From: an uncultured bacterium
GTDB lineage: Bacteria > Acidobacteriota > Thermoanaerobaculia > Multivoradales > JAHZIX01
DNA: 64,000 nucleotides
Direction: 5' to 3'
Assembly (NCBI GenBank): GCA_965368975.1
Contig: CBDUPA010000017.1
Coordinates: 64,001 to 128,000 of the forward strand
The translations under genes were made by a program, and so were the position numbers. The notes beneath the pieces are model-generated. The model was not told the DNA's origin and did not search any database. It saw only the letters and a program-made list of their open reading frames with translations. Positions 3,487 through 33,339 of this stretch are shown here, piece after piece; within the stretch, counting starts at the first letter, position 1; every line of letters begins with the position of its first letter.

Positions 3487-3640
3487 TCGTTTTTCGTCCC
3501 GTGCGTAAATGATTGAAGATAAGTGAGGTATCGGAGCTTCTCCAACTATACACAAAATGCCACAGGCGCGAGGATGGCGGCTGTCGGTGTAGAATCATCG
3601 TGGTTCTTGGATCCACCGGCTCCGCCTCGACGACCTACCT

Positions 3641-18600: not shown

Positions 18601-19648
18601 CCGCAGCCTCACCAGCGGTCTGCGCCGCGGTCGCCGCAAGGCGGTCCAGCTGGACGCCGTCGACCCGATCAAGAGCCGCGTCCTCGACGGTGGCCCGACA
18701 CGGGCCCTGGTGCTCGAACCTGCCGTTCCCGATGTCGACCTGACCGGCTGGGCCGCCGCCCAGCGCGATCAGCTCGACCGTCATCTCGACGAGTATGGCG
18801 CCGTCCTGCTACGCGGCTTCCACGTGCGCGAAGTCGAAGAGTTCGAACGCTTCGCCGCCGCCGTCTGCGGAGAGCTCTACAGTGACTACGGCGACCTGCC
18901 CCACGATGCTGCCGAAGGTCAGGTCTACACCGCCACCCCGTACCCGCCGGACCAGCGCATCCTCTACCACAACGAGAGCTCGCAGATGGACAAGTGGCCG
19001 ATGCGCCAGATCTTCTGGTGCGCGCAGCCCTCCCTGGTCGGCGGCGAAACCCCGATCACCGATTGCCGCCAGGTCTACAAGAAGCTCGATCCCAAGATCC
19101 GCGCCGACTTCGCCCAGAAGGGCTTGATGTACGTGCGCAACTTCGTTCCGGGCGTCGATGTGCCGTGGCAGGAATTCTTCCGCAGCGAAGACCAGGCCAC
19201 CGTCGAAGCCCGCTGCCGCGCCGCCGGCATGGACGTCGAGTGGCTGGCCGATGGCGGTCTCAGAACCAAGCGTCAAGGCCCCGGCGTCGCGCGCCATCCA
19301 AGAACCGGCGAAGAGATCTTCTTCAACCAGATCCAGGCCCACCACATCGCCTGCCTGGAACCCGAAGTGCGCAAGAGCCTGCTAGAAATTACCTCCGAAG
19401 AAGGTCTACCGCGCAACGTCACCTTCGGTGATGGCACCCCGATCCCGGACGACGTGGTGCAGCAGATCGTCGAGCTGTACGACGAGCTGAGCCTCATCTC
19501 ACCCTGGCAACAAGGCGACGTGCTGGTCGTCGACAACATGCTCATGGCCCACGCTCGGAATACCTTCTCCGGGCCGCGCAAGATCTACGTCGCGATGGGG
19601 CGGATGGTGACCTTTGACGAGATCAAGGGGAATATGCCGGAGGGTTGA
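3641..19648 (+). CDS. Non-ribosomal peptide synthetase, C1-A1-T1-C2-(Pro-rich linker)-C3-A2-T2-C4-A3(methyltransferase-interrupted)-T3-C5-TauD/SyrP-like dioxygenase; no TE
   Basis: Five HHxxxDG condensation motifs, each preceded by S(F/Y)AQxR(L/M)W. Three YTSGSTGxPKG A3 motifs. Three GGHSLL thiolation motifs. VLDVGTG SAM motif inside A3. C-terminal HNE...DNMLMAHAR Fe(II)/2-oxoglutarate motif. Confidence 0.97.
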   Translation: MTQNSRTHLTSQQRALMRRLLARKGVAAPAADALAAGELVPRSPEDDPPPLSFAQQRMWLLDSLQPGNPFYNIPDILFLDGPLEPRRLHRALRGVVERHEVLRTAYALPPDAEATASAALGASPAAAARPREPCQLVQAQVDLPLPLLDLRGLAADPERQAAEVERLGEAEARRPLRLDQPPSLRTTLVRLEPHRHAFFVVLHHIAADGWSKSVLAAELAALYRGAALPPLPIQYADFALWQRRWLGQGELERQLAWWRGQLGEEADAGAVTALELPTDRPRPPEFSHRGAGRPLIVPAGLVSRLRALGRAGTGDKGTGQGSGDVTLFMLLLAGLQALLYRLSGQSDIAVGSPVANRRRAELEALIGFFANTLVLRTDLRGGPSFRQLLERVRHVTHDAFEHQDLPFERLVEELQPARDLSRTPLFQVLLVLQNTPPASAIEMSAEGSPSGEVSPAGDGPLVLQRRPLDTGTAKFDLTVDLASSEPGAGDVDGALLGGIEYATDLFDATTVDRLGAQLVRLLQAAVAQPEHPISALSLVTPAERQQLCVEWQLFERAGNAAESTSDVSIAAPVLRWAARSPDLIAVTADRHFLSYGELVRRSGHLAAALRAHGVGVDEQVCIAQDRVCGYPLALLGVLRAGAACVPLDLTWPAARHEILLAEAKPRLVLDAPTLAQLLEEGLLEEGPLQGRLPAESDRLEADGPPSIQALAYVLYTSGSTGTPKGVAMPHGPLRHMLAWQVRASAAGASADTVRSERTLQFASPGFDVSFQEIFSTWSAGGTLVMVREAVRRDPETLLDFLAERRIGRLFLPFVALQALAEVAAAQRAGRWPALREVMVAGEQLRVGPALRTWFGDLLRGKRAARLANHYGPTEAHAVSAEILPADVETWPSLPLVGRPVAGAVLYVVDPDAAVHGWPGVLSPIGVPGELLIGEVTVGDGALARGYLDRPRWTAERFVPDGAGIFACGAGKLPHGGRLYRSGDLARYLPDGRLECFGRLDAQVKVRGYRVEPGEVETVLASQPQVVQAVVVTRPSGRGVLLVAYVVMAKETPTGEPPASTRDPHLATLRDSLRGQLPDYMVPAHIVALDALPTTGSGKVDRRALQRLSLDAVTANAAAGGDASDAPSTPAEIQLAEIWCELLGVARVGVDDDFFDLGGHSLLATWLSVRARDAFEIELPVRAVFEHPRLAQLAVEIERLRRDGQGLSPLPPLRPRSAATPPDASRGHQDCLYEGPVSFAQERLWFLEQLRDGDTGYRLASRLRLLGDLDARALATAIDGLAARHETLRTVFADHDGEPIQRVLPPRRGALALPCVDLSGVVDRATETQRTSLLGRLTGTFQRQPLPLDTGPLLRLLLLRTGGRDEHLLLFNLHHIISDGWSMSVMFRDVGELYAAAVDGRAPRLPVLSVQYADFAAWQRGWLEGDRLDEQLTYWQQRLSEPRLPQPLRLPRDRPVAPGAGPGRGGMVTGALPPELARQVETFARRHDVTPFMVLLAAFAVLLGRLANTDDVLLGTPVANRRSRELEGLIGFFINLISLRLEVAPATTFKALLAQVRSVTLGAYDHQDIPFERLVELVQPDRRDGDVPLAQVTFQLLNTPRAEAAELPRLRMEQQPLEVRRAKLDLGLMFEGQGEHLGWLAEYDADRFDRASVEHWLAAFQELLASALAEPRQVVDDLPALDIVRRRQPSGVAPVLPSAPSLVPPMAPPSLAPPALAPPSLAPPELAPPELIPPPVASPPPLHMPEEPETPIKQPAEGNDSEPDEPLTLSDAPMLLPAARKARGVPLSFAQERLWFIDRLEPTAAAAYNTPGRIYLEGVVQPAALRVAIHALIARHESLRTVFVEIEAQPLQRVAAVASPLGQPPLPVVDLGGLAETDGAKQADVLTARAATHPFDLARGPLLQIFLLRLAAGLSGESTSPRHQLYFNLHHIVTDGWSMEILFREMARLYQAAATGGTASPASGPAQVLAQEAGLPPLPVQYPDFAVWQRAWLSGDELQRQIDYWRRQLAARDAQEGSPQEGGGLEWTRLQLPEDHPPPAEPRADRCGRLPVRLPLPLVRSLDGFARRHEATLFMTLLAGFALLLHRLTGQRDLTVGTPIANRRHVDVEGLIGFFANTLVLRADLTAGTGTGSGDPGFGQLVDRLRRTTLEAYDHQDLPFARLVEALQPERQLGRTPLFQVLFQLHKAQPVTEARTTEVTLELETLDAGLAKFDLELTLSQIQGPVAGTLVYNADRFDATTVRRWMDDYLRLMRAAVRAPERPVTRLDVLTPSASQQLVREWGSGPLSDTWSGPASRNQPEPLPTLPCLVFEQARRTPHAIAVQGRRHALSYATLTARARRLASALRHTRNDEESIIGLSLPRGPRACVALLGVLDSGAAVLPIDPAYPRERRDLMLQDSGTRRVLDGGAVDELLQLPDGAAEPQVATRASVPEPHPHQLCYLLYTSGSTGVPKGVAMRHGLMAQVLAWELRRNAPVPQTPVPQTPVPQTPVPQTSVPQTGPHRTLAFTPLSFDVSFQETFATWGAGGTLVLVDEDTRRDPHLLLRHLLRQRVQRLYLPFVALQALAEASAAPEAPRPDELVELITAGEQLRMTPALTAWLQRRPTLRLHNHYGPTETHAISAWSLGRRRPGELVRAPALPPIGRPIDGVRVYVVDSLARPRPIGCVGELWAGAEFADHGSPARGYHRRPALTAARFVPDPLIREPHRRGARVYRTGDLARYRADGELEFLGRRDTQLKVRGFRVEPGEVEAALEALAGVGQAVVVPRQGAGGVALIAYVLVAAELVASESPPDAASLRDTLRRRLPDYLVPAAVHVVETLPKTPSGKVDRRALRQRAAEQEAVAVEFVAPHSVTEEQLAALWADLLQRQQVGVRDHFFDIGGHSLLATTLTARLRDVFGVEVPVKAVFEHPHLDELAAEIDRLRATDSAPVLPPLEPVPRDARGLPLEPLPVSFAQERLWLTERLSEDAAGGYRLPGKLELLGDFRPLAMARALRRLVSRHETLRTVFAEVDGAPVQRPLPAREARVELPVVDLSRLAATTAAVLESSLTAQLMAQPMPLAEGPLLRVLLLRFAPFSPEPTELPQPARAKHLLLFNLHHIVADGWSMGILFREVSQFYRAEVEGTADALELPPLPVHYGDFAVWQRQWLSGERLDAQLSWWRQHLDGAPAAVELPADRPRPPRVGRSGALSDHLPASLEAGLSQLGRRHGATLYMVLLAAFSALLPRLGSGRDLVLGTPVANRRHRGLEGLIGFFINVLAVRLQPARDVDFATWLQQVRQLTLDVYDHQDLPFERLVEALQPAREPGRPSLVQVVFQLQNTPPAAAVELPGLQLRMRGVELERAKFDFSLMAERVGDASGGAPVVLVADYNADLFDATTVRRWLRAFEVLLEGAIAAPGTPLGALPVLDAVARQQALVEWNDVEAPYDRDATLPELFAGQVRQRPDAIGIVYGRRHLGYREIARRAGRIAALLSRRWAGRAAAENRVAVTGQRSPELVLATVGVTLAGGAYVPLDPDTPVHRLAFQLHDAGAEVLLVDAASRDHLAQAVAAAAELGSTESPATVELMDFEAVLAQDVPSAAPREALHPDDLHPENLVNIFYTSGSTGKPKGVAVTHRGVVRLIQAGVTPTAGYPGFGVERRVAQSANPVFDPTTYEIWGALVHGGCLVEVPKAQLLAPETLGDFLRARRIDVQYLTVAVVSLIARQAPDALNSVDVQLLGGEAIAPARVAEILDAGSPRHLIHVYGPTETTAWCSYEDLCKLPVLPSGGRVPSGQPTLTVGRAVPNDTIYYLDGRFRPVPTGCPGEICAGGDGVVRGYLGRPGRTAEVFIPDALSGRPGARLYRTGDLGRWRADGRLEFLGRVDFQVKIRGLRIEPGEIEAVLRRYPEVRDAVVLVLGEGDERQLGACVLTRPDESPSSLQVRDTRDEPPEIWPNVGEYQIYDELLYYAMSRDVRRNQAYRQALQRLLSDAASPGLTVLDVGTGHDAIWARYAAEAGAAHVYGLEVLEASAAAAREEVRRAGLDDRITILHGDVTDPTFRLPPHPDGRERRVDLIVSNLIGTIGGCEAAPVLLGHARRFLAPGGRMIPARCRTRLAGVTLPPELQDEPRFTPLAADFARRVFDAVGHPFDVRLNLRHFPPSLRLTVAAGPDGDVFEDLDFRDPHGQPAATQGVFSSPVFSSEYERRLHLRVELPEQSDARLDGFLLWLELQTAAPATQAPTGGEAPTGEASIVLETLDPPCSWLPVYLPVFEPPQRVRTGDEIELTVEARLAADGLHPDYHVRGWLRRDPAQGGDVEIDFESPFVGPAVPAASAAAHPPSRRPALYRALFGDSGEPRVAQTAQDALLAELHAHLQTQLPDFMVPSRLLALDALPLTPNGKVDRAELSRRLLRQAAAGAIRAGEAAEVVTFDGPHAETARTIATVWQDVLGLESSVGPEDQFFALGGHSLLATRVISRLRKTFELDIPLRWMFESPTPAELAPRVDGLRPAPEAAVPAGDAEPPLVPVPRDQPLPLSYAQQRLWLADQLQPGDIAYNMPLGVRLRSESPEGELDIAALSHALDTVVARHEALRTTFPVGSDGEPVQHIAGPRPSPLPVVDLSALPEEVAQAESERLGLGHARHRFDLARGPLLVAAIVRQRRDDHALLLNLHHVIADGWSLAILVRELSGLYRALLEPGQDRVELPELAIQYADFAVWQRRYLAGDGLDGDRLDGDSQDKGAREQLLDHWRQVLAGAPPVLDLPSDRPRPEVRSLRGDRRVRGHQAEQRQRLEALAQAHQGTLFMVLLAAFKTLLYRLTGQHDIVVGTDIANRNRPEIEDLIGFFINHPVLRTDLAGNPTFAELVDRVRAVTVDAYAHQDLPFDLLVEELQPERSPSVTPLFQVLFVMQNAPTGGTPVTTGLTLEAMPGESHSSKYDLVVEALEFGDGLALSWTFRTDIFDAATVEQLAERYALLLDQVAADPDRRLDELSLEIESDKERRAMEEQQRRSLTSGLRRGRRKAVQLDAVDPIKSRVLDGGPTRALVLEPAVPDVDLTGWAAAQRDQLDRHLDEYGAVLLRGFHVREVEEFERFAAAVCGELYSDYGDLPHDAAEGQVYTATPYPPDQRILYHNESSQMDKWPMRQIFWCAQPSLVGGETPITDCRQVYKKLDPKIRADFAQKGLMYVRNFVPGVDVPWQEFFRSEDQATVEARCRAAGMDVEWLADGGLRTKRQGPGVARHPRTGEEIFFNQIQAHHIACLEPEVRKSLLEITSEEGLPRNVTFGDGTPIPDDVVQQIVELYDELSLISPWQQGDVLVVDNMLMAHARNTFSGPRKIYVAMGRMVTFDEIKGNMPEG
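8756..8830 (+). repeat. Degenerate 15-bp tandem repeat x5 encoding APPxL in the C2-C3 linker of the NRPS
   Basis: gcacccccatcacta gcaccccccgccttg gccccaccgtccttg gcgcccccagagctg gcacctcccgagctg. Confidence 0.85.
11063..11137 (+). repeat. 15-bp tandem repeat x5 encoding (P/S)VPQT inside A domain 2
   Basis: ccagtaccccagacc is present three times exactly, plus two near-identical flanking copies. Confidence 0.95.
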
Positions 19649-19659
19649 GAGTTCGTGGA

Positions 19660-20472
19660 CTAGTGCTCCAGAGCTTCTCTTCCCGCTGCGCGAGTCTCGA
19701 GTTCTTTGGCTTGGGTTGGAAATCTGTATATCAGCACAATTTCTGTACGTCGGTTCAGTCTCCACTGCGCGGCCCCCTGATTGGCGGAGTCGAGTTCGGC
19801 ACGATCAAAACTGCGAAGCCGGTTCCGAGTCGAAGGGACGTACTCGCCGAAGCTAGTCGCTGACATCAGGCTCTGTGTCGGGTCGATTCCACTTTCTTGT
19901 TGAAGGAAGTGGAAGACAGAGAGAGCTCTCTCTGAAGCCAGGTGCAGATTTGAAGCGTATTTTGAAGTTGATCTCGGGTCTGCATGAGCCTGAATCTGTA
20001 TTTCTTCGATGTAGTCCAGACGAGGCTGGATCACTCTAGTGAGGAGGCGAAGCATTCGCTTGCTTGGGGTGAGAAGATGGTGTTCGTTCTCCTCGAACAG
20101 CAGGTGGTTCTCGAAGGAGAAGCGCTGCAATGTCAGGGAGTTGACGATTGTCACATCGGGTCTCGCAGTCTCGGCCGTTGCTAGAGTGAAGGTATCGGCG
20201 TTGCGAGCGTTCGTGAAGAGTTGGAGTTGTGTAGCAATAGCTATGGCCTGGATCAGCTCCAGTTGTCTCTCGTTGAGTAGGGCCAATCTACTCAATAGGC
20301 TGTCTTGCTCATCTACTACCGTGGAGGCAGATTCGGAGTTCGCCTCTAACGGTATTGGTGCTTGTGAACTGAAGGCCACCACCAGTAGGGCTAGGACTGC
20401 CACTAAGGACAGCATTAGATCGGTTCCAGGGCCGAATAGGTCTTCGTCAGGGGCTTGTCTTTCAAAGGACAT
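19660..20472 (-). CDS. ZorB/MotB-like protein: single TM helix with conserved Asp plus OmpA-like peptidoglycan-binding domain
   Basis: N-terminal GTDLMLSLVAVLALLVVAF (Asp in the TM). C-terminal IQIQAHAD...NLHLASERALSV...SFGEYVP...NRRTEIVL. The ATG directly follows the TAA of the upstream gene. Confidence 0.85.
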   Translation of the reverse strand: MSFERQAPDEDLFGPGTDLMLSLVAVLALLVVAFSSQAPIPLEANSESASTVVDEQDSLLSRLALLNERQLELIQAIAIATQLQLFTNARNADTFTLATAETARPDVTIVNSLTLQRFSFENHLLFEENEHHLLTPSKRMLRLLTRVIQPRLDYIEEIQIQAHADPRSTSKYASNLHLASERALSVFHFLQQESGIDPTQSLMSATSFGEYVPSTRNRLRSFDRAELDSANQGAAQWRLNRRTEIVLIYRFPTQAKELETRAAGREALEH

Positions 20473-22047
20473 TTAGCGCCTCCAAAGCCGAAGGGTTTTG
20501 CGTGAGAGTTTTCTAGCAATTTTTGATGCGAAGTTCAAGGTATTCACAAACATTTTCAGGAGCCGGCGCTCGATGGGTAGGTCCAGGATGCCATCCTGCA
20601 GTGAAGCCATGGCTTCGACCAATTGCTGATGAACCTGACTTGAATTTCTTTGCGTTGCCAATGTCGTCTGCAGGAGTTTCTGTAGAGTAGTATGCGTGGG
20701 TATCAAAGTGGTCGATGGATCGGCAAGAGTCGAAGTGCTTCGTGTCGCCTCAACGACCTCTAGCGTACTGGTCCACCGTGATTCGAGGCGACTGACAATT
20801 TCCGCTAGTTGTTCATATGATCCGGCGAGTGAAGTCTGTAGGATCTGGGTTTGCGCCAAGCTGTCGGAGCCAATTCGAGTAACAGTACTGACCATTCCTT
20901 CCATGTGAGATAGAGGTGTGAGCAGTTCGTTGAACTGTTGCAACAGAGCCTGCAGGTTCCTTTGCAAGTTCCCGACAAGGTTGCGGTTACTATTCTCAAG
21001 CGCGGTCTCCAGTCGCTGCGTGAGTCGCTCGGGTGAGAGCGTCTGGTAGATGTCTCTTAGCTCGGTCAGTAGCAGTTTCTGATCGTCTTGTACCTGGCCA
21101 AGGAACGAATCCAGATGCTCTCGAGCCTCTGCAAGATCGCCCATGCCCTGCTGTAGAGCGTTAGTCTGTGCAGCGATTCTATCGCTTTGATGAAGGATAC
21201 GATCGCTCACCTGGCGGACTGCGGTCTGTACTTCGTTCAGTTCGGCTAGATATGCATCGTTGTTGATACTGTTCCGTGCCATTGAAGTCAGGCCGACTGT
21301 AGCCTCTTCCATGCTGCGGAAATATTCCTGTTGGCGCTGCTGAACGATCAAAGCTAGAAGTTTCAATAAGATAGCTACTTCAATGCCAGCAATGCTCGTA
21401 CTGAAGGCAACCCCGAGATTGTTGAGAAGCCCCTGCAGATCTTCTGGATTTAGTTGTCTTCCGGCTGTCGGAGTGAGATGAGACAAAGCGAAGAGTAGTC
21501 CGACAAAAGTACCGAGGATGCCTACCTGAAGGGCGATACGCTGCAGACTTTGCAAGCGGGACAGACCAGCGAATGCGCCCTCACGGAATGGCTGCATAAG
21601 ACTAAAGGGGGGAGAGAACCGCCGATCCTTAGCCTCGCGTAGTATGTGTTCGAAGAGGCGCAAGATATCTATTTCTCTCTCGGGATTCTGAGGCAGATAG
21701 CGTGCCCCGAGGGCATCCAGCGATGGGCGCGAGAGCGCGCCACCTTCTATACGACGGAGGTCGCTGGCCGCATGCTCGTCAACGCGATCTGCGATCTCAA
21801 TGCTAACTATCAACATGGCCAAGATCTTGCTGGCTAGAATAACACCCCAGATGGCAAGACTATGAATAGCGATAGGTGGTAGCCACACGAGGTAGTTCTC
21901 TGTGACAAGAGCTAGGAAACCCAGGCAGAGGCCCACGGTCAGTATGATGCAAGACACCGTGAACAACCAGCGCTCTCGCAGCCAGAAGGCGGGAAAGCGA
22001 ATCACGTCCTTGGGAGCTTGCAGCGCGAAATCATGATTGCTCATCAT
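20473..22047 (-). CDS. ZorA-like MotA/TolQ/ExbB-family proton-channel protein with long helical cytoplasmic tail
   Basis: N-terminal hydrophobic helices, QVGILGTFVGL and LGVAFSTSIAG channel motifs, then about 290 aa of Leu/Gln-rich helical tail. The tail is a ZorA hallmark absent from MotA/ExbB. Confidence 0.82.
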   Translation of the reverse strand: MMSNHDFALQAPKDVIRFPAFWLRERWLFTVSCIILTVGLCLGFLALVTENYLVWLPPIAIHSLAIWGVILASKILAMLIVSIEIADRVDEHAASDLRRIEGGALSRPSLDALGARYLPQNPEREIDILRLFEHILREAKDRRFSPPFSLMQPFREGAFAGLSRLQSLQRIALQVGILGTFVGLLFALSHLTPTAGRQLNPEDLQGLLNNLGVAFSTSIAGIEVAILLKLLALIVQQRQQEYFRSMEEATVGLTSMARNSINNDAYLAELNEVQTAVRQVSDRILHQSDRIAAQTNALQQGMGDLAEAREHLDSFLGQVQDDQKLLLTELRDIYQTLSPERLTQRLETALENSNRNLVGNLQRNLQALLQQFNELLTPLSHMEGMVSTVTRIGSDSLAQTQILQTSLAGSYEQLAEIVSRLESRWTSTLEVVEATRSTSTLADPSTTLIPTHTTLQKLLQTTLATQRNSSQVHQQLVEAMASLQDGILDLPIERRLLKMFVNTLNFASKIARKLSRKTLRLWRR

Positions 22048-24322
22048 TGTCCTCGCTTCCTGTCGTCAGCTGCTTCTGGATAGGTGTCGTTCGGGGATTG
22101 AGAAGGGGGGTTAGATCCTGGAAGGCTGATAGTTCATCTGCGTCTTCAGGCTTTTCCTTGTCTCCTCGGAGGCGCAGAGGTCCAAAGTCAGGCTCACGAT
22201 GGAGAGACTCAGCCATTAGGCTGTCGATCCGAGTCTGGAGATCAAGCAACGTTGGATCATCGGCTGGTACTTCGGCATCCAGCAGCTCTCGCTTCTTCGT
22301 CTCAAGACGCTGGTACTCAGCTAGTCGATTCTGAGAGATTCCTTCGATCAAGTTTATGTCTGCGTTACTGGCAGACTTGAGGCGATTGGTATTAGTCAGC
22401 TTCTTCAGATGTTCCGCCGATGTTGAGTCGCGATTGACGACCAGTAGCTCGATCTCAAGACCGAAGGTTCTGGCCACAGGGCCCAGACTGCTAGCGAACA
22501 ATTCAACCAGTTGAGATTTTTGTTTCCACGTCCTGAAATGCAGGTATTGGGGGGGAAGTGTTGCGAGCCGTTCACGTAGGCCGGCGCCTAGAACTTCCTC
22601 AATAGCTTCTGTTTCTTTCTCAGGAGAGCCGTAGTTCTTTGATAAGAAAATGTGCCAGCCTTCTGATAGGACGCTTCGAACTTGATAGACAATGCGGTAG
22701 GTGACGTTCTCCGATGTTTCATCTAGATTGTGCGGTTCAACGGTGAGTTTGAAGCTGCGATGTCGTCGGCACAGTTCGGTGATGCGTTCTGTGATGCGAT
22801 CTTCCTGCATCCTGAAGACAATCTGGATGTCGTCGGCACTGACGCGTGTAGAAAGGCGCTGTACGATTTGCTGTTGGATCTCATCTGCCACAGACTGCGT
22901 CGCGCTGAGTTCTGGCATGTTGAAATGAAGATAGAATTGCTTAGGTGTGACAGAGTGAAGTGCCTGCTCCGCCCCTTCCTCTGCTTGTGTCCGAATCAGA
23001 TTCTTGATCTGGGCAGTGGGAGTGAGTAGGCGTTCAATTTTGCGAAGATCAGGGATACGGCCAGTCACGACTAATCCCATATTGACCGATACTCTGGGAT
23101 CGGACGTTGCATAGGACCGTGATGATTCGACCTTGAATCCATCGCGTTGAATGACAAGGGGTTCTAGGTCGGTAAGAACGACATGGTGTTTGATCGTGTA
23201 ACCGAGTGATTCCGCTCGATGCTTGACCGCAGTCTTGATTTGCTCAGCTAGCTCCGTAAAATCAAGCAGTAGGCCGACATAGGTCTTATCAAAAAGATGG
23301 TCTTGGATGACGCCTACAACTTCAGTGTTCCACCAGGCGTCGAGTGATTCAAAGCCGCTTCGCTCCCAGAGTCCCGAATTGCGCAGTCTTAGGCGGATGG
23401 TGTTGTGTACTGGGATCTTGGTCTTAGTACCTCGAATCGTGCACTCAACTGTGCGCTCGATCTCGAGAGTTCTTGCTTCAGGAGTAGGAGCGTCACTGTG
23501 GAGTTTCAGGTAGCTGACCTGACGGCCGTACTTGGCCAAGGTTCGATCTAGGCTCACTAGCACCTTGTCGCGGAGTCGTTCGGTACGTTCGAAGTGGAAT
23601 TCATGGAGCGTTACTGCTTGCTGGAAGAAGCGCTGGAGGGATTCTTTGACTCGAACCCCAAGCTTGTGTTCGTCCCTTCGAAGCAGTAACGCCTGCAGCT
23701 CCCCGTTCTGAGCAACATCAAGGGTTGTTGTGACCTCAAGACTCAGCGCGTCATCGTTGTCCATGACCCGAACTGAGAAGGCTTCGATCGTGAGATTGAT
23801 TGGTTTGAGCTCACCGCCAGCCGGGCGAATCTGGCACTGAGCCAGAAGCCCTGCTTCCTCAATAAGATGTGTGCACAGATCCTGTTCAAGATAGTCGCGC
23901 AGTTTTGAAAAACTCTCAGATGGCTCTGAGCTTCTTTGACTTCGTGCGCGATGTTGCTGCTCTAATCGACGTGCTACGAGTTTGTTCAGAGCCAGGAGGG
24001 TACTGTCATCGCTGGCAAGGCATTGAACAAGCGTGTTCTCTCTGTTGGGCGCGCACTCAAGGAATAGTTTAGCCTCTAGCTCCAACGATCGACCGTCGAG
24101 TCTCTTCAGAATGACCGCATCGGTAACGAGTTCGACTTGAGATTCTGTGGAAACTAAGTAGTACCGGACTTCTCGCCATGGCTGAAGGATTGGAGGCTTC
24201 GGGAGTACCCGACGGTGCCGAACGTCGAATATCAGGATCTTGCCTACGATGCTCGGGGAGCCCTTCCGCGAACGAGAGGGTACTCGGCGAATCAATGTGT
24301 CGAGAGGCTGGATACTGCTCAT
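22031..24322 (-). CDS. Hypothetical protein with about five tandem SPFH/band-7-like domains and a C-terminal coiled coil
   Basis: Start ATG at 24322 after GAGGGAG. Recurrent helix-Gly-strand endings: EAGLLAQCQI, KYGRQVSYLKL, SLGYTIKHHVV, RVSADDIQIVF, TFGLEIELLVV. The first three Gly codons are exactly 324 nt apart. Confidence 0.6.
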   Translation of the reverse strand: MSSIQPLDTLIRRVPSRSRKGSPSIVGKILIFDVRHRRVLPKPPILQPWREVRYYLVSTESQVELVTDAVILKRLDGRSLELEAKLFLECAPNRENTLVQCLASDDSTLLALNKLVARRLEQQHRARSQRSSEPSESFSKLRDYLEQDLCTHLIEEAGLLAQCQIRPAGGELKPINLTIEAFSVRVMDNDDALSLEVTTTLDVAQNGELQALLLRRDEHKLGVRVKESLQRFFQQAVTLHEFHFERTERLRDKVLVSLDRTLAKYGRQVSYLKLHSDAPTPEARTLEIERTVECTIRGTKTKIPVHNTIRLRLRNSGLWERSGFESLDAWWNTEVVGVIQDHLFDKTYVGLLLDFTELAEQIKTAVKHRAESLGYTIKHHVVLTDLEPLVIQRDGFKVESSRSYATSDPRVSVNMGLVVTGRIPDLRKIERLLTPTAQIKNLIRTQAEEGAEQALHSVTPKQFYLHFNMPELSATQSVADEIQQQIVQRLSTRVSADDIQIVFRMQEDRITERITELCRRHRSFKLTVEPHNLDETSENVTYRIVYQVRSVLSEGWHIFLSKNYGSPEKETEAIEEVLGAGLRERLATLPPQYLHFRTWKQKSQLVELFASSLGPVARTFGLEIELLVVNRDSTSAEHLKKLTNTNRLKSASNADINLIEGISQNRLAEYQRLETKKRELLDAEVPADDPTLLDLQTRIDSLMAESLHREPDFGPLRLRGDKEKPEDADELSAFQDLTPLLNPRTTPIQKQLTTGSEDNDEQS

Positions 24323-24333
24323 TTTATACTCCC

Positions 24334-27027
24334 TCAGTTGCTCGAGTCGCTTCTCGCACCTGGCATACAATCAAGACGGGCAGATTTGAGTTGCTGCTCT
24401 AAGGAGAGCGAATGGATTCTTAGAGCTCGGAGTACGAGTCGCTTCTCGGTTTGAGTTCGATCCATGCGCTGGAGTTCCGTGGTATATTGTTGCCGCTGAG
24501 TGCGCAAGCTTGCCAGGAGCAGTGCTTGCTGCTGATAGTCGGTGATAGCAAGTGTCTCGGTGAGGAGGCTACGAACGAGCGCACTGCTTTCGGGGTGGGC
24601 TTCTTCCTTCTGAGCGCCTTGTAGGGCGAAACACCAGCTTTCGAGCACCGATGCACGCATGTCCCAAGTTTGTTTTGTTGCATTTGCGCGTTGAATCTCG
24701 TTTGCTGGGGCGGGCGGCCCCAAAGCGTCCTCTTCGAGCAAACTCATGAACTGAAGAATTGCATCTGAAGTAGATGGATGAAAGAGCCAGCGAACGAGTC
24801 TCTTGGTGCGTTGATTGCACTGAGCGCTGTCCTGAGTTATGACACGTAGCAGGGGTTGATCTGGTGGCCAGGCTGGAGACAGCGCGGAGCTTTCTGAGAT
24901 AGTTACTTCCGAAGTATAGACTCCGATAATGATAAGGCTAAAGGTCGCTGACGCAGGTAGACTCTTGGCTTCATTCCGGGGGAGCCAGTCTGACAATTGC
25001 TCTAGCAGCTCTGCCGCGTGCTGCCCTGGCTGTAGCACTCGCATCGACAGAGATTCCATTGCTAGGTCTCTGGTCTCAGGAGGGCTCTCGTCAATGAGGC
25101 GCTTCATCCAGTACAGTGCCTTGAAACGAGAGTCGAAGCGTAAGCGATCGGCAACCTCCAGAACAAGATCCAGAGCACTGCTATGCGATTTGCGTTCAAG
25201 AAAGAACGCGAGTCCCCTGTCGATCGCACTAGTGAGTTGGTGATGTTCTAGCATGTCACGCAGGAGATCTGCGATTCGCTGGTATGTCTCGGAATCTGGC
25301 TCTCTATCTAGTTTGGTTTCCAGGTCTGCTTCGTGGGCGTTATGGGAAGTAAAGACCAAGTCGAATAGCCACGATGGTTCCAGACGTCCTGGATCTGCAA
25401 TTGACATTTGAATGAACAAACGGCTTACGCATCGCACCAGCTCTGGTGATGTTTCTGGAGCTAGAAGAGTATCTTTATCTATGACGGTTTGAAATACACT
25501 GTAGATACGGCTTGTATTGTTAGACCAGAGATGCTTGAGTAATTCTTGATGGTGCTTGGGACGCTTGAACTTGACGATGTGACGTCCGTCTTCAAGGCTC
25601 ATCACGTGAAGTTTACTGTGCCGTAAGTGGCCGTCCGGGTCCTTCTTCCAGAGCCTGAGGAGAGAGCACAAAGCTTCTTGCTGGGCAATCTTGAGCTTTC
25701 CCTTCTTGGTTGTTCTTGCTATCGAGACTTTAGCTACTTGTCTTCGATCGGAAAAGACGATGGTTAGAACTCGCAGGAAATCTGTCGGGTTTATTTCTCT
25801 GAACAGAGTACCCACAAACATCGCTGTTTTGTGCAGCTCAGAGCTTTCTTCAAAGAATTCGGCAATTGAGAATTCTCGTGCTGCTTCCTCGGTTTGGTGG
25901 CGTTGTCTCTCATCAAGTTCGTCTTCCAGCTTTCTAAGCCCCTGGCAGATGACCGCTCTCAGATCTCGATAGAAGTCAGTATCGCTTCGCGGCCACAATC
26001 CTTGCTGTCTCTGGGCCAGCAGGCGTTTCTCGATTGTGTCCACCCTGCGACCAAAGTGGTCTTCTAGTATGGGGCGAAGGAATGGAATTTCGATGTGGGG
26101 AAAGGGAAAGTCATCTTTACGGCGATAGAAAGAATTTGAGATGGAAGAATCTATTTGTAGCAGTATTGATAGTTGAAGTTCTTCGAATCTGTCTGTAAGG
26201 AAGTTCGCTTTATATGGGTGGGTCATGGCGGAGTCTAAGAAGGTGCTAGCGTCACGAATGTGTATCAGTAGGACTACAGAGTCGGAGTGCCCAATCTTCA
26301 ATTCTGTGAACTGATCCAGGGAATTAGATTTATCATGATGACTGGCCGCTTCGGCTCTGTTCCCGGAACTGTTGAGTTGTTGGTGCCTTGCTTCAGATTC
26401 AGGGCTAGGTTGGTAAAAGCGTTGCTCAGCATGCCTGAACGAAGGTGAGTCCATGATTGCTCTGGCGGCAGCCTCGTTAACATTGTTAGCTGCCCCTGTT
26501 ATTGCAAGTACTCGATGTTCCAGAAGCTCCTCTGCGCATCCTCTTAATAAGCGATTTCGTTGAACCGTCGGCAAGTGATGCATTTTTTTCGGAAGAGGGA
26601 TCGTGCGATCTGTCGGTTCATAGCTCTTGGATACAGGGAGTTCAAACCGCTGAACAGAGGCTATGAACTGTTGCTGAATGGATTGCTCGTTTCGACCGTC
26701 TGATCTGGGCTTGGCTACCGTCTTGTCGGAGTTGCTCTCCTCTTTGTCTGGTGAGGGAGCGGTTGCGATGTCTTCGATTGTTGGGCTTGTGTCGGGACCG
26801 TCGAGACTTCTTCGGCTTGATTCTTTTGAACTGGAAGGTTCTGACGGAGCAGACTTATCGCTGTTTGTCTTTGGTTCCCTATTCTTGATTTTCTCAGGAA
26901 GAGTTGCTTCGTTGGCCAGATCGTCCTCTCCCGTCTGCTTCTGATTTCCAAGCTCCGTTTCCTGAGCTGGATCATTATCCGGCTTGGCTGATGCGTGCTG
27001 CCCTTGGTGGTTCTGTGTTTTTGTCAT
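24334..27027 (-). CDS. Hypothetical 897-aa protein: disordered N-terminus, Q-rich motif, degenerate STAND-like P-loop region, alpha-helical repeat C-terminus
   Basis: ATG at 27027, 1 nt after the CHAT stop. About 110-aa S/E/D/K/P-rich N-terminus. RVLAITGAANNVNEAAARAI at the Walker A position, lacking GKT. VVLLIHIRD is Walker-B-like. The C-terminal half is Leu-rich and helical. Confidence 0.55.
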   Translation of the reverse strand: MTKTQNHQGQHASAKPDNDPAQETELGNQKQTGEDDLANEATLPEKIKNREPKTNSDKSAPSEPSSSKESSRRSLDGPDTSPTIEDIATAPSPDKEESNSDKTVAKPRSDGRNEQSIQQQFIASVQRFELPVSKSYEPTDRTIPLPKKMHHLPTVQRNRLLRGCAEELLEHRVLAITGAANNVNEAAARAIMDSPSFRHAEQRFYQPSPESEARHQQLNSSGNRAEAASHHDKSNSLDQFTELKIGHSDSVVLLIHIRDASTFLDSAMTHPYKANFLTDRFEELQLSILLQIDSSISNSFYRRKDDFPFPHIEIPFLRPILEDHFGRRVDTIEKRLLAQRQQGLWPRSDTDFYRDLRAVICQGLRKLEDELDERQRHQTEEAAREFSIAEFFEESSELHKTAMFVGTLFREINPTDFLRVLTIVFSDRRQVAKVSIARTTKKGKLKIAQQEALCSLLRLWKKDPDGHLRHSKLHVMSLEDGRHIVKFKRPKHHQELLKHLWSNNTSRIYSVFQTVIDKDTLLAPETSPELVRCVSRLFIQMSIADPGRLEPSWLFDLVFTSHNAHEADLETKLDREPDSETYQRIADLLRDMLEHHQLTSAIDRGLAFFLERKSHSSALDLVLEVADRLRFDSRFKALYWMKRLIDESPPETRDLAMESLSMRVLQPGQHAAELLEQLSDWLPRNEAKSLPASATFSLIIIGVYTSEVTISESSALSPAWPPDQPLLRVITQDSAQCNQRTKRLVRWLFHPSTSDAILQFMSLLEEDALGPPAPANEIQRANATKQTWDMRASVLESWCFALQGAQKEEAHPESSALVRSLLTETLAITDYQQQALLLASLRTQRQQYTTELQRMDRTQTEKRLVLRALRIHSLSLEQQLKSARLDCMPGARSDSSN

Positions 27028-27028
27028 G

Positions 27029-28288
27029 TCATGTCTTCTTCGGCGAGATGGCGTTGATGTCACCGAAATTCTGTCGGCTAGCTACAAACTGCTGTTGAAC
27101 GTGCGCATTTTCCATTGCTATGGAGAGTCCTGAACCTGCATCTGTCGCTTGTGTGAGAGTTGGAGTTTGTTTGCCTGGAGTCACTGAGTTCTTGCCATGC
27201 AGTGATCGTTCTGGCTTGGATCCGCGCTGAGGTGAACAGACTTGCCCCTCTTGGAGTCGCATGAACAGAACTGGATCGGTCCAGCGTGAAGAGTTCGGAT
27301 CATTCAAATAGAGACGATGCCGAGTCTCGTTCAAAGCCAAGTCGACATAGCCCGAATGGAGCAGTTGTTGGTAGAAGTGGCGAGGAAATTCCTCCGCAGT
27401 TTGAAAGGAGAGCGAGTCCTGCATCGATATGACAGCGGGTACTCCCTTCCGGACCAGTCGTCGCCCCAGCCCGGAGAAAGGGTTCGCGGCTGTAGCGACG
27501 CCTCCATGGCAGCTGAGGAGGTTGAGAAGCCGTAGATTCTGTGCGCCTAGGAATACCTCGGAGAAGAGATCTTCCTCGACAAAGTCACATGTTCGATCAG
27601 GAGATTCCATAACCATTGTTCCCTTCGCCGTACCCTGATGCAAGAAGCTGTGACCCACGAGGTGCAATATGTGCCATGGAGCAACGGTGAGGCGGTGCCT
27701 TAGGTGTTCCGCCGTCGCCGGAGGTTCGAGAAAGTCCCAGATTATCTGGCCACGAAAGGGGGTCAATACTTCATTCAGTTCACCCATCGTCGATTCGAGA
27801 TCGATCAAGGGCAGTCCGAACTGGTTGCTGTTCAGCGGAGCGACAATGGCTATGAGTAGTTTGGGCTTCCCGATAGCTGGTAATGCTGTATCTAGCCCAA
27901 TGGGTGCATACCTGGAGAAGGCGGTTCTGGGCGAGCGTGCGAGACTCAGCTCCGCATCGGGATCGTGCAGAGTCTCCCAGCGAAGGCTGTGCAGTTCTCT
28001 AGGTGTAGCGTGAGCCAGCGAGAGCTTGAATCTGATGCGGCTCTTGGCACTGTTCAGTGTCCGTCGATACAATGCTCGCATTGGGTCACCGGTTGGGAGT
28101 AACGCTTCAAACAGCCTAGAGCCATACTCGTGGGTCTGGTGGAGTTTGAGGTGTTTGAGTTCACCTACTAGTTCTGGTGACAAGCGAGGACGGCCTGAGG
28201 CTTTGCTGGACGGAGAACGTATCTGTCCCTGGTTCCGGTCCAGAATGTCAACTTCCAGGTCGATGAGCGAAGTTTCTGTCATGTGCAT
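27029..28288 (-). CDS. CHAT-domain (caspase-like, clan CD) protease with low-complexity C-terminal tail
   Basis: ELHSLRWETL, HILHLVGHS (catalytic His), LLNLLSCHGG (catalytic Cys), GVPAVISMQ, FYQQL, WTDPVLFMR. Confidence 0.88.
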   Translation of the reverse strand: MHMTETSLIDLEVDILDRNQGQIRSPSSKASGRPRLSPELVGELKHLKLHQTHEYGSRLFEALLPTGDPMRALYRRTLNSAKSRIRFKLSLAHATPRELHSLRWETLHDPDAELSLARSPRTAFSRYAPIGLDTALPAIGKPKLLIAIVAPLNSNQFGLPLIDLESTMGELNEVLTPFRGQIIWDFLEPPATAEHLRHRLTVAPWHILHLVGHSFLHQGTAKGTMVMESPDRTCDFVEEDLFSEVFLGAQNLRLLNLLSCHGGVATAANPFSGLGRRLVRKGVPAVISMQDSLSFQTAEEFPRHFYQQLLHSGYVDLALNETRHRLYLNDPNSSRWTDPVLFMRLQEGQVCSPQRGSKPERSLHGKNSVTPGKQTPTLTQATDAGSGLSIAMENAHVQQQFVASRQNFGDINAISPKKT

Positions 28289-28469
28289 TCTCTTTGCTGG
28301 AGCGGGGAACTCTTTGCTTCAGAGTGGACCTCTCAAGGTGGTGCGCGCTAGGGACATCCCTAGGATTCATGGATCTAGTACATGGACACTGGCGGGAGTT
28401 TTCTTGTTGCGAAAGGAATTCGGATCTCGGTGTAGCTTCCTGGAGCCGAACTCTTGGAAGCCGCACTAG

Positions 28470-28644
28470 GGTTCAGCCAGAACGAAGCCTGTTCACCCCG
28501 AGCCATGACGAGCCAGTGGTTCGACCGACTGGTTTCCCCGCCAGTCGCAGGATTCCGCCAGGAGGCCTTTCAGCGGCATGGTTGGGACTCTGGAGATCCG
28601 GACATATCATTGAGTTCTTGGGGGCAGGCGACTGGGAAGTCTGA
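28470..28644 (+). pseudogene. Decayed Phd/YefM-like antitoxin remnant
   Basis: Fragments in shifting frames read ...HDEPVVR/LVSPP...FSGMVGTLEI/GHIIEFLGAGDWEV*. This resembles the typical antitoxin C-terminus (PVARLVP...GxMxGTxxIxGDIIEP...WE). No intact start was found. Confidence 0.5.
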
Positions 28645-29053
28645 GCCGAGGAACCCACCGGACCGGATGTCTTCTGGACCCCATATCTGGCTGTGGTTCC
28701 TTGGGGGATCCCTGCGGCTGCCTAAAGGACTCACTACACTGATCCAGGAGAACAGTGATCAGTGCTGGCTTTCGCCCATCTCGATTTGGGAACTTGGAGT
28801 CTTGGTCGACCGAGGACGGCTGACGTTAGACACGAGCCAGGAGTCCTGGGGCCGAAGCTCCCTGGAGAAGCTACCTCTGCGCGAGGCACCGCTGACGCGC
28901 GACGTGGCGCTCGGGGTGCATTCCTTGCAGTTCGAGCATCGAGACCCGGCGGATCAGTTTCTGGCTGCGACCGCACACTGCCTGGACCTGACCTTACTGA
29001 CGGTCGATTCCCGGCTGACAGCGCTGACTTGGTTGTCGACCCGCTCGAAGTAG
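28641..29053 (+). pseudogene. PIN-domain (VapC/PilT-like) toxin with a -1 frameshift at the catalytic LLD(T)H motif
   Basis: ctt ctg gac cc cat atc tgg = LLD-(2 nt)-HIWLW. Downstream SPISIWEL, HRDPADQFLAATA and LLTVD are intact PIN motifs. Confidence 0.7.
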
Positions 29054-32524: not shown

Positions 32525-33310
32525 ATGAGATCTATCTCGATGGGTGCGATGGCGATCCTGGTGGTCCTTCTTGCCGGGGCCTTGGCGCTTGCGGGCGCGA
32601 TGCCTGCCGGCGCCACTACGCTGCTGCGGATGAATGCGGGGAATCTGATGGACTCGGCGGAGCTGATCTTCGTCGGCGAAGTCCTGGACGTGAGCTCGGT
32701 GCCGGTTGCGGACGGCTCCTATGCCTTCACCTTTGTGACTTTCGACGTCAGCGAGACGCTGAAGGGAGAGATCGACGGGACGCAGTTGGCGCTGCGCTTC
32801 GATGGTGGTCAGGTCGGCGACCGGGTCATCGAGTACGAGGGCATGCCGACCTTCCAGCCTGGGCAGCAGGTACTGCTGTTCGTCGAGGGCAACGGCAAGG
32901 TCGGGTGCCCGGTTCTGGGCTGGTGGCAGGGGCGCCTCGACTTCGTGTCCGGTCCAGACAGCTCGGTGCTGGTGGATTCCTTCGGTGGAATTGTCACCGG
33001 AGTGGCGGATGGTGAATGGCTGCGAGTCGCTCCTGAGGAACTGCTGGAGCGTCAGCGTTCACCTCGGAGCGAGCCGAGCGTCGAAGTGCTTTGGACCGAC
33101 GGCGTGGAGATCGAAGCTCCGGCCGAGGACGCTGTGCGTCAGGCGCGCTTGGCGGATTCGGTGGAGGTGCTGGAGGCGCTGCGTACGCAGCTGCGCGCCC
33201 GCCGCACGGAGAAGAGCTTCCAGCGCGGCGTGCGGGTCGAGTCGGCATACACCGACGAGATTCCCGCGACCGTCGAGTTCCGACCCACGACCGCGCCGGT
33301 GGCGCAGTGA
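32525..33310 (+). CDS. Secreted hypothetical protein (ATT...AELIFVGEV family, often associated with matrixins)
   Basis: Signal peptide followed by ATTLLRMNAGNLMDSAELIFVGEV...GGQVG...GMPTFQPGQQVLLF. Confidence 0.7.
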   Translation: MRSISMGAMAILVVLLAGALALAGAMPAGATTLLRMNAGNLMDSAELIFVGEVLDVSSVPVADGSYAFTFVTFDVSETLKGEIDGTQLALRFDGGQVGDRVIEYEGMPTFQPGQQVLLFVEGNGKVGCPVLGWWQGRLDFVSGPDSSVLVDSFGGIVTGVADGEWLRVAPEELLERQRSPRSEPSVEVLWTDGVEIEAPAEDAVRQARLADSVEVLEALRTQLRARRTEKSFQRGVRVESAYTDEIPATVEFRPTTAPVAQ

Positions 33311-33339
33311 TGCTGGGTTTCCCAGCAAAGGAGTTAGCC

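Follow-up and report, generated by a model that had tools for sequence, protein, structure and literature searches.

A five-gene bacterial cassette with a ZorAB-like pair, a predicted multi-SPFH protein and an NLR-like protein matched to a variable effector: a candidate conflict system

Zorya systems of types I–III encode a MotA-family subunit with a long cytoplasmic tail, together with a partner that has a single transmembrane segment, a conserved Asp and a peptidoglycan-binding domain; depending on the type, ZorAB is combined with ZorC/ZorD, ZorE or ZorF/ZorG. To our knowledge, Zorya is widespread, and only its nuclease-type outputs are understood. Other described systems share parts with the locus considered here, namely BASS pairs such as Bab/Agp of E. 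coli, the iSTAND ternary systems (MoxR–vWA–iSTAND), and the SPFH assemblies formed by FliL as rings on MotAB and by HflK/C as cages on FtsH. The roles of SPFH proteins in bacteria are poorly understood. We have analyzed a 64,000-nt stretch of DNA from an uncultured bacterium (contig CBDUPA010000017.1, positions 64,001 to 128,000; further called the window) and describe in it a densely packed cassette of five genes, W1–W5, all located on the minus strand at 19660–28288. With a probability of roughly 0.7, this cassette is a horizontally acquired conflict system organized in three layers, most likely an anti-phage or regulated cell death system.

The first gene, W1 (27029–28288, minus strand), encodes the effector, a CHAT (caspase-like) protease of 419 aa. 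It is followed on the same strand by W2 (24334–27027), encoding a predicted inactive STAND/NLR-like protein (897 aa with the ATG start, or 909 aa with an alternative GTG start at 27063); W3 (22031–24322), a predicted soluble multi-SPFH protein (763 aa from the ATG, or 779 aa from an alternative TTG at 24370); W4 (20473–22047), a ZorA-like channel subunit of the MotA/ExbB family (524 aa); and W5 (19660–20472), a ZorB/MotB-like subunit (270 aa). Given the ATG starts, W1 and W2 are separated by 1 nt and W2 and W3 by 11 nt, W3 and W4 overlap by 17 nt, and W4 directly abuts W5. The cassette is carried by a low-GC (guanine plus cytosine) block at 19650–28900, with no strand assigned, whose GC content in the composition profile is 0.49–0.57, compared to about 0.70 in the surrounding DNA; in 1-kb bins, the values are 0.49–0.54 at 20–28 kb and 0.67–0.71 in either flank. 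An earlier note on this DNA had described five same-strand genes joined by a 1-nt gap, an 11-nt gap, an overlap and an abutment, in a block of about 50% GC within DNA of about 70% GC, and the coordinates of open reading frames (ORFs) and the bin values bear out both points. Horizontal acquisition is part of our preferred explanation of the cassette, and the low-GC island together with the patchy distribution considered below is compatible with a mobile defense gene set. At the island edges we observed no signs of mobile elements (no tRNA in the window, no notable flanking direct repeats) and no excess of promoters or terminators.

The gene set, proposed as a unit from the window alone, recurs in several phyla and in metagenomes. 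Genomes were reached by the W4 alignment, one genome per species, which returned 80 loci; 17 strong loci (E ≤ 5e-22) were analyzed, leaving aside 63 weaker ones (L027–L089). They belong to Acidobacteriota, Gemmatimonadales (Gemmatimonadota), three Bacteroidota lineages and a Parabeggiatoa (Gammaproteobacterium). In these genomes, W3 is immediately upstream of W4 in 16 out of 16 assessable loci (as a remnant of 163 aa in one and fragmented in another), W2 is present in 15 out of 16 assessable loci, and W5, in all 17. The metagenome sample, which includes soil, comprises 32 loci found via 23 W3 proteins sharing the word PERFYMRF, and hence is biased to one W3 subgroup. Here, W2 is located upstream of W3 in all 24 assessable loci, W4 downstream of W3 in 17 out of 30, and W5 follows W4 in 13 out of 13. 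In the metagenome loci lacking W4, the next genes encode a PEGA-domain kinase and an FHA protein, an ARC6-like IMS protein and a VanY peptidase, or small unknown proteins. At one metagenome locus, L115 (3148–5031), W3 is followed by a gene for a CHAT-TIR-SAVED protein and not by a ZorA-like gene; CHAT-TIR-SAVED is the sensor-effector kind of protein found in cyclic-nucleotide signaling systems.

Two overlapping genome samples were searched starting from W3, comprising 60 relatives and 400 genomes of the phylum (Myxococcota). Strong matches were obtained in two of the 60 relatives (G010 and G038, from one genus) and in one of the 400 genomes (G444), plus one weak match, and W3 was absent from all 399 genomes of other Acidobacteriota searched; this sampling shows the rarity of the family, not co-occurrence. 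G444, a second myxobacterial genome, has the order CHAT–W2–W3–W4–W5, its W4 being 35% identical to that of the window over 390 residues. In G010 and G038, a caspase gene, W2 and W3 are followed by genes for a TPR protein, a second caspase, an unknown protein and a DUF4384 protein, with no W4 or W5. Since W2–W3 is constant, while W4 follows in 17 out of 30 metagenome loci and is replaced elsewhere, W2–W3 is the constant core of the system and the ZorAB-like pair is its commonest but replaceable envelope module. The earlier note had described a Zorya-type system; the ZorAB-like pair is a frequent module, and the constant part is W2–W3.

The gene preceding W2 differs between loci. In the window it is W1, which matches Pfam CHAT with 81.8 bits (7.6e-23, cut-off 24) and PADLOC SAVED_CHAT with E = 3.7e-9, and whose His213 and Cys260 dyad is invariant in an eight-sequence alignment, in line with its initial annotation as a CHAT protease. 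CHAT proteins occupy this position in the window, in G444, at eight genome loci (at one of them on the opposite strand) and at seven distinct metagenome loci. Trypsin_2 is found at eight loci; TIR_2, at two; PNP_UDP_1, also at two, one of them with an additional EAD11 protein; and Peptidase_C14 (caspase), in G010, the genome that was covered by the Pfam scan behind this assignment, with its sister genome G038 left out. At two loci the occupant has no Pfam family. Thus, the position upstream of W2 is a variable effector slot, and protease is merely one of its occupants. The suggestion of the earlier note that a caspase-like protease replaces the Zorya partners applies to the window itself, and does not extend to loci where the effector is swapped. 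All slot enzymes with an assigned family are of immune or cell-death types, and PMC7159879 describes swappable enzymes of such kinds as a hallmark of conflict systems. In addition, a larger second CHAT protein is encoded directly after W5 at L009, L012, L112 and L114, as well as in G444, where it has pentapeptide repeats, so some cassettes may hold two proteases.

The effector C-terminus and the W2 N-terminus share, at the sequence level, a locus-specific motif, as in NLR amyloid-signaling pairs. In the window, these are the W1 residues 397–408, VQQQFVASRQNF (27065–27100, minus strand), and the W2 residues 117–128 of the 897-aa form, IQQQFIASVQRF (26644–26679, minus strand), the latter situated 43 residues before the conserved core. 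The two motifs have 8 of 12 residues and 20 of 36 bases identical; the score of this pair was reached by 27 of 5000 shuffles of the W1 tail, and the cognate W2 ranks first of 17. The position of the W2 motif is largely maintained, ending 31–63 residues ahead of the conserved core in 13 out of 15 aligned loci; for L004 and L005, the top-scoring local match is at a different place, 114–123 residues before the core. For the 17 genome pairs of effector tails and W2 heads, the mean cognate score is 41.4 vs. 27.4 for non-cognate combinations (standard deviation 6.9), and for the 14 pairs of the independent metagenome set, 67.1 vs. 30.9; in each set, none of 20,000 permutations reached the observed cognate sum.

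Each locus has its own motif sequence, and G, N and Q are abundant in many of the motifs. In trypsin-type loci, the shared segment is of a different kind: instead of a short G/N/Q motif, it is a stretch of about 57 residues with a high content of charged ones. At one of them, L098, the trypsin tail (2468–2647) and the W2 head (2723–2896) are identical in 56 of 57 residues and 167 of 171 nt, a near-identity indicative of a recent duplication, or of gene conversion, involving the two neighboring genes. A complex prediction for W2 (residues 100–520) with W1 yielded a score of 0.38, the best of three controls being 0.00, with at least 25% of contacts in agreement between runs and a partner pLDDT (predicted local distance difference test) of at least 73. 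Of 80 solved complexes, 58 reached that mark, as did two of 110 mismatched pairs; in the range up to 0.60, however, there were only seven of the solved complexes, along with both of the passing mismatches. The prediction hence gives weak support to a W1–W2 contact.

These features resemble the BASS pairs, where adjacent genes encode the same short motif at the C-terminus of the effector and at the N-terminus of an NLR-like protein; many of the cassette motifs agree with them in their abundance of G, N and Q. Effectors of the CHAT and TIR types have already been noted for BASS pairs (10.1101/2020.01.06.895854), and one bacterial NLR amyloid-signaling pair has been shown to defend against phage (10.1101/2024.11.07.622273). 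Unlike BASS pairs, the cassette has a receptor, W2, that lacks Walker A, a multi-SPFH gene always comes next and a ZorAB-like pair usually does; moreover, the longer charged segment of the trypsin-type loci differs from BASS motifs, and the overall likeness is at the level of sequence.

The AlphaFold2 (AF2) model of W2, built from 17 sequences, has a moderate pLDDT of 72.1 and consists of a disordered region (1–137), a beta/alpha domain (142–315), a helical region, strands (429–487) and an alpha-solenoid (490–887). Foldseek matches of this model are weak; they start with a catenin-beta-like protein (9.8e-4) and EfAvs5, a SIR2-STAND protein (1.4e-3, over 630 columns), and further include karyopherins and other ARM/HEAT proteins, AAA+ and ORC/Cdc6 proteins, PCH-2 and Clp. 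Atlas features place W2 in an nSTAND3 cluster at 0.94, where only 14% of the members carry that family. The Walker A motif GxxxxGK[ST] is absent from all 17 W2 proteins, most of which have C-x-[DE] in the loop following strand 1. None of the 17 matched Pfam at E ≤ 0.01, models for W2 and W3 are missing from PADLOC-DB 2.0, and word-index protein searches with W3 and with the W2 alignment retrieved the window's own proteins alone. The best reading, which we hold with moderate confidence from the fold leads, is that W2 is an inactive STAND-like protein with a P-loop-like domain devoid of Walker A.

Such a protein is reminiscent of the iSTAND ternary systems, where inactive STAND proteins have TIR, caspase-like, trypsin-like or EAD adaptors at their N-termini, and which feature membrane-proximal peptidoglycan-associating modules (OmpA, PEGA) and are enriched in multicellular Gram-negative bacteria, as PMC7159879 describes. 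In contrast to them, the five cassette genes encode neither a MoxR ATPase nor a vWA protein; a weak VWA_2 match (E = 1.6e-4, below the cut-off) was observed in one flanking ORF of G444 only. In the main text of Kaur et al. 2020, SPFH/Band7 figures only as a scaffold domain of vWA proteins (PMC7159879).

For W3, the AF2 model built from 80 relatives has a pLDDT of 87.8 and contains approximately five repeated beta/alpha modules and a long C-terminal helix (635–706). Its Foldseek matches are prohibitin (1.8e-4), stomatin, HflK/C, erlin and flotillin, with E-values from 1.8e-4 to 5e-3, as well as the major vault protein (MVP), and the target-normalized TM-scores against single SPFH domains are 0.69–0.75; Atlas features also agree on SPFH. 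The family is considerable, with 491 representatives at E ≤ 1e-3 and still 163 at a threshold of E ≤ 1e-30. W3 itself has no match in Pfam, PADLOC or NCBIfam, and its homolog in G444 scores 18.5 bits with Band_7, under the cut-off of 23.6, the Pfam scans of W3 relatives having been done on single sequences. No hydrophobic segment was found in the W3 sequence. Based on the model, W3 is predicted to be a soluble SPFH-fold protein with about five repeats in one chain and a long C-terminal helix.

The SPFH fold and the long C-terminal helix liken W3 to the rings of FliL and the cages of HflK/C, and its gene is coupled to those of both known types of SPFH client, a stator (here MotAB-type) and a protease (PMC6426602, PMC8794807); PDB entries 7wi3 and 9cz2 are among its Foldseek matches. 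The differences are the tandem arrangement of some five SPFH-like modules per chain and the lack of a transmembrane anchor, which would place the action of W3 at the cytoplasmic face, with the W4 tail as a conceivable target. Such an architecture is not seen in any solved SPFH protein matched by Foldseek, the nearest in layout being MVP, a repeat protein with one SPFH-like shoulder. Both the degenerate STAND-like nature of W2 and the multi-SPFH nature of W3 had been proposed in the earlier note from the sequence, and both stand: the former given the missing Walker A and the fold leads from AF2, Foldseek and Atlas, the latter given the confident model and the same two comparisons. It had also called W3 a membrane-scaffold protein, a description left unsupported by a sequence in which no hydrophobic segment was found.

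As judged by the coordinates of genome and metagenome loci, the W3 and W4 genes usually overlap by 4 nt, which suggests translational coupling. Several W3 genes are unusual. Those at L017 (6018–9947, a Gemmatimonadales genome) and L093 (1986–5888, a metagenome contig) encode about 1300 aa, the L017 one consisting of two tandem W3 copies in a single frame. At L011 (Thermoanaerobaculia), a 163-aa W3 remnant is found beside intact W4–W5, and at L014 (Blastocatellia), W2 and W3 are split into several fragments; the broken genes at these two loci reflect either decay or frameshift errors of long reads.

W4 matches Pfam MotA_ExbB (6.2e-7, 29.6 bits at a cut-off of 22.9; 32.7 bits in the whole-genome search) and eleven PADLOC ZorA models (best 6.2e-8; 16–30 bits), and no NCBIfam MotA, TolQ or ExbB model matches it at E ≤ 0.1. 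Compared with solved structures (E ≤ 1 for a 10-sequence profile, E ≤ 0.01 for the single sequence), the matching MotA-superfamily PDB chains are of the ZorA type only: 8qyd, 8qyh, 8qyk and 8qyy (EcZorA), 8vvn and 8vvi. The latter two, deposited as "MotA/TolQ/ExbB proton channel domain-containing protein", we take to be ZorA. The W4 residues T180 and S218, both invariant in the 10-sequence W4 alignment, align with EcZorA Thr147 and Ser184, which form the ion-selectivity filter (Hu et al., PMC11946911). Hydrophobic segments are confined to residues 26–87 and 170–237; about 285 residues follow the last of them and match coiled-coil proteins, the alignment with EcZorA reaching chain residue 397.

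W5 matches Pfam OmpA (1.7e-10, 41.6 bits, cut-off 27.2) and six PADLOC ZorB models (best 1.9e-10). Its single hydrophobic segment (residues 12–44) contains Asp18, which lies within the motif GPG[TS]DL conserved in 18 out of 18 aligned W5-family sequences. About a half of the family are short proteins (~200 aa, at L009, L011–L017, L019, L020 and L025) that keep the GPGTDL helix, while their C-terminal domain is reduced and gives no Pfam OmpA match; judging by these sequences, wall anchoring may differ between W5 subgroups.

Elsewhere in the same genome there are two canonical MotA_ExbB genes, scoring 115.7 and 114.4 bits vs. 32.7 for W4. As the genome has these two genes, W4 is an extra, divergent copy, and W4/W5 are not a housekeeping stator. 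We considered a housekeeping Tol/Exb/Agl role and rejected it, given the two canonical genes and the swappable death effectors in the cassette. Profile-library and structure matches indicate that W4/W5 form a distinct ZorAB-like clade, with ZorA the nearest relative.

The comparison with Zorya is therefore the closest one at the membrane end. Here, too, a MotA-family subunit with a predicted cytoplasmic tail and a single-segment partner are encoded in one operon with soluble partners, and the equivalents of ZorA Thr147/Ser184 and of ZorB Asp26 are retained. On the other hand, ZorC, ZorD, ZorE, ZorF and ZorG are absent from the cassette, and none of W1, W2 and W3 matches a Zor model of PADLOC; instead, the pair is accompanied by a multi-SPFH protein, a dead STAND-like protein and a protease, which at other loci gives way to TIR, trypsin or nucleosidase. 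We would expect the output to be proteolysis or an attack on NAD or nucleotides, probably abortive, whereas that of type I is a nuclease attack on phage DNA. The W4 tail has ~285 aa, while the EcZorA tail projects ~70 nm, and the W4/W5 pair is dispensable to the W2–W3 core at many loci. Accounts of this pair in the earlier note fared unequally. Its MotA/TolQ-type channel with a tail of some 290 aa and a partner with an Asp-bearing transmembrane segment and OmpA domain is what the tail length, D18 and the OmpA score indicate, and the lack of ZorC/D/E was noted correctly. Naming the pair the ZorAB motor was too strong: it is nearest to ZorA, not to MotAB, ExbBD or TolQR, and with 33 bits vs. a ZorA cut-off of 250 it represents a distinct ZorAB-like clade and not the ZorAB motor itself.

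On the folds, conserved residues, gene order, variable effector slot and cognate motif matching described above, we build a proposal for the order of signaling, the physical contacts and the biological trigger by analogy with Zorya, SPFH cages and rings, and NLR signaling. At the input, W4 and W5 would form a probably proton-driven, peptidoglycan-anchored motor of the ZorA5B2 type that senses envelope perturbation, the signal running down the cytoplasmic helical tail of W4. In the middle layer, W3 would probably be a ring or a cage linking the W4 tail to W2, and its assembly would control the assembly of W2, the NLR/STAND-like protein without a nucleotide-binding loop. At the output, the N-terminal motif of assembled W2 may recruit or template the effector, here W1, which, activated by proximity, would cleave targets in the cell. 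The cassette would thus work like Zorya at the input end and like an NLR amyloid pair at the output end; from these parallels we infer its defense function.

A more specific version of this mechanism is quite speculative, and we put it forward tentatively. According to it, mechanical or peptidoglycan damage sensed by the motor is passed via the tail to a five-fold SPFH cage, where an NTPase-dead NLR is released or assembled and templates, in a prion-like manner, the tail of a swappable death enzyme. If true, this would be the first link of a rotary motor with amyloid-type signaling, and NLR-like hubs could be driven by an external motor rather than by their own nucleotide cycle.

A number of observations weigh against the three-layer conflict system. 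At the output end, the cognate partner ranked first in only nine of 17 genome loci and seven of 14 metagenome loci, L005, L113 and L105 show no motif match by pairwise scoring, and the related loci entering the motif statistics are not independent. The match in the window comprises 12 residues only, and in the AF2 model it is a helix of low confidence rather than a strand, the pLDDT over the W2 motif region being 27–41. The W2 model is only moderate (72.1 from 17 sequences), with the best fold E-values about 1e-3 and generic ARM/HEAT and AAA+ proteins among the matches. At the input end, W4 scores far under the NCBIfam ZorA cut-offs, with 33 bits for ZorA_3 (250), 29 for ZorA_4 (500) and 25.8 for ZorA1 (750), and W5 alone matches nothing among solved structures at E ≤ 0.01. 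W4 is missing from 13 of 30 W3 metagenome loci, and the core thus does not depend on the motor. Members of the family are also scarce, with three non-self genomes across the two Myxococcota samples plus one weak match, and none among the 399 other Acidobacteriota. Finally, the 105 flanking ORFs of the 17 loci belong to mixed Pfam families, including housekeeping ones, and these neighborhoods are not clear defense islands; PADLOC gives single-ORF matches only, mostly to generic kinase or sigma-54 activator models. The proximity to defense islands, which the earlier note had suggested as a check, thus yields no clear signal.

The next candidate explanation is a fourth Zorya type, with a ZorAB core and with CHAT, W2 and W3 as type-specific soluble partners recruited to the ZorA tail like ZorC/ZorD. 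It accords with W4 and W5 being nearest to ZorA and ZorB in every library and with the conservation of the key motor residues; besides, all close W4 relatives with upstream sequence have W3, the two genes overlap or abut at nearly all loci, and the Zorya types treated in PMC11946911 differ in soluble partners only. We still find it unlikely. W2–W3 occurs without W4/W5 in those 13 metagenome loci and in two myxobacterial genomes, making the motor a module of the W2–W3 system and not the reverse, and the place of the motor is taken by PEGA-kinase/FHA, ARC6-like IMS with VanY, DUF4384 or CHAT-TIR-SAVED proteins; the scores are also far under the curated ZorA cut-offs.

The system could, alternatively, serve regulated cell death or envelope surveillance in multicellular development or kin conflict, not defense against phages, with the motor reporting any envelope or peptidoglycan damage. 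The hosts are largely social or filamentous (myxobacteria, Parabeggiatoa, Saprospiraceae), the replacement modules are related to peptidoglycan (VanY, PEGA, ARC6-like IMS), the neighborhoods carry no defense-island signal, and the effector repertoire with EAD11 matches conflict systems tied to multicellular prokaryotes (Kaur et al., PMC7159879). However, the same effector types and motif-pair logic are found in proven anti-phage systems (10.1101/2024.11.07.622273), ZorAB is known from phage defense only, so far as PMC11946911 describes it, and the low-GC island and patchy distribution fit mobile defense genes; we regard this alternative as improbable. Far-fetched is a chance neighborhood of two unrelated units, a W1–W2 effector/NLR-like pair and a W3–W4–W5 housekeeping envelope or FliL–MotAB-like stator-scaffold unit: although SPFH proteins do ring MotAB stators (FliL; PMC6426602, PMC8794807) and at some loci the W3–W4 coupling is closer than the W2–W3 spacing, W2 immediately precedes W3 in 24 of 24 metagenome and 15 of 16 genome loci, including those without W4/W5, the genome already has two canonical MotA_ExbB genes, non-flagellated myxobacteria are among the hosts, and W3, unlike FliL, has no membrane anchor.

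Returning to the conflict-system reading, the cassette combines known kinds of parts, a Zorya-like input, an output of the NLR-motif type and an SPFH link, and looks like an undescribed kind of immune or cell-suicide system. Full-text literature searches, covering main texts, found no publication describing such a cassette. The Zorya modularity paper mentions no type IV and no caspase or protease partner, the main texts of two Aravind-laboratory papers mention neither MotA, TolQ, ExbB nor Zorya, and a paper on MotAB evolution does not treat such neighbors. The composition, which the earlier note had considered new, has thus matched no named system or paper.

Should this reading hold, the ZorAB motor would emerge as an envelope sensor of general use, capable of being connected to death enzymes (caspase- and trypsin-like proteases, TIR, nucleosidases). 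The cassette would also suggest how control could be exerted over a STAND/NLR-like hub that lacks a nucleotide switch, namely by a motor and an SPFH scaffold. SPFH proteins would gain a defined set of genetic partners, and the logic of NLR amyloid signaling would be extended to Gram-negative soil phyla, to trypsin-like peptidase and PNP nucleosidase effectors and to a new receptor type. The parts of the cassette are clonable in size, and sites for point mutants are at hand: D18 in W5, T180 and S218 in W4 and C260 in W1, along with motif swaps.

The host genome is of 7.1 Mb and 99% complete. To the left of the cassette, a single ORF of 5335 aa (3641–19648, plus strand) ends 12 nt short of it; PP-binding, Condensation and TauD dioxygenase domains were found in its last 1000 residues, and by these domains it is assigned as a large non-ribosomal peptide synthetase. 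The right flank contains a PIN-domain ORF, a MiaE-like gene and a Met-zincin gene. The PIN-domain ORF (28454–29053, plus strand; Pfam 2.3e-5) is divergent from W1 and is overlapped upstream by an ORF at 28294–28644, for which no Pfam family was found; the two ORFs are a possible toxin-antitoxin pair of the vapBC type. More distant ORFs encode a Ser/Thr kinase–TPR fusion (1210–3555, minus strand), a DUF5117/DUF4953 Met-zincin (29727–32294, minus strand), a matrixin with CARDB and PKD (33091–34752, plus strand) and a TPR/FG-GAP protein (36651–40226, plus strand), and the flanking gene content is typical of large social soil bacteria.

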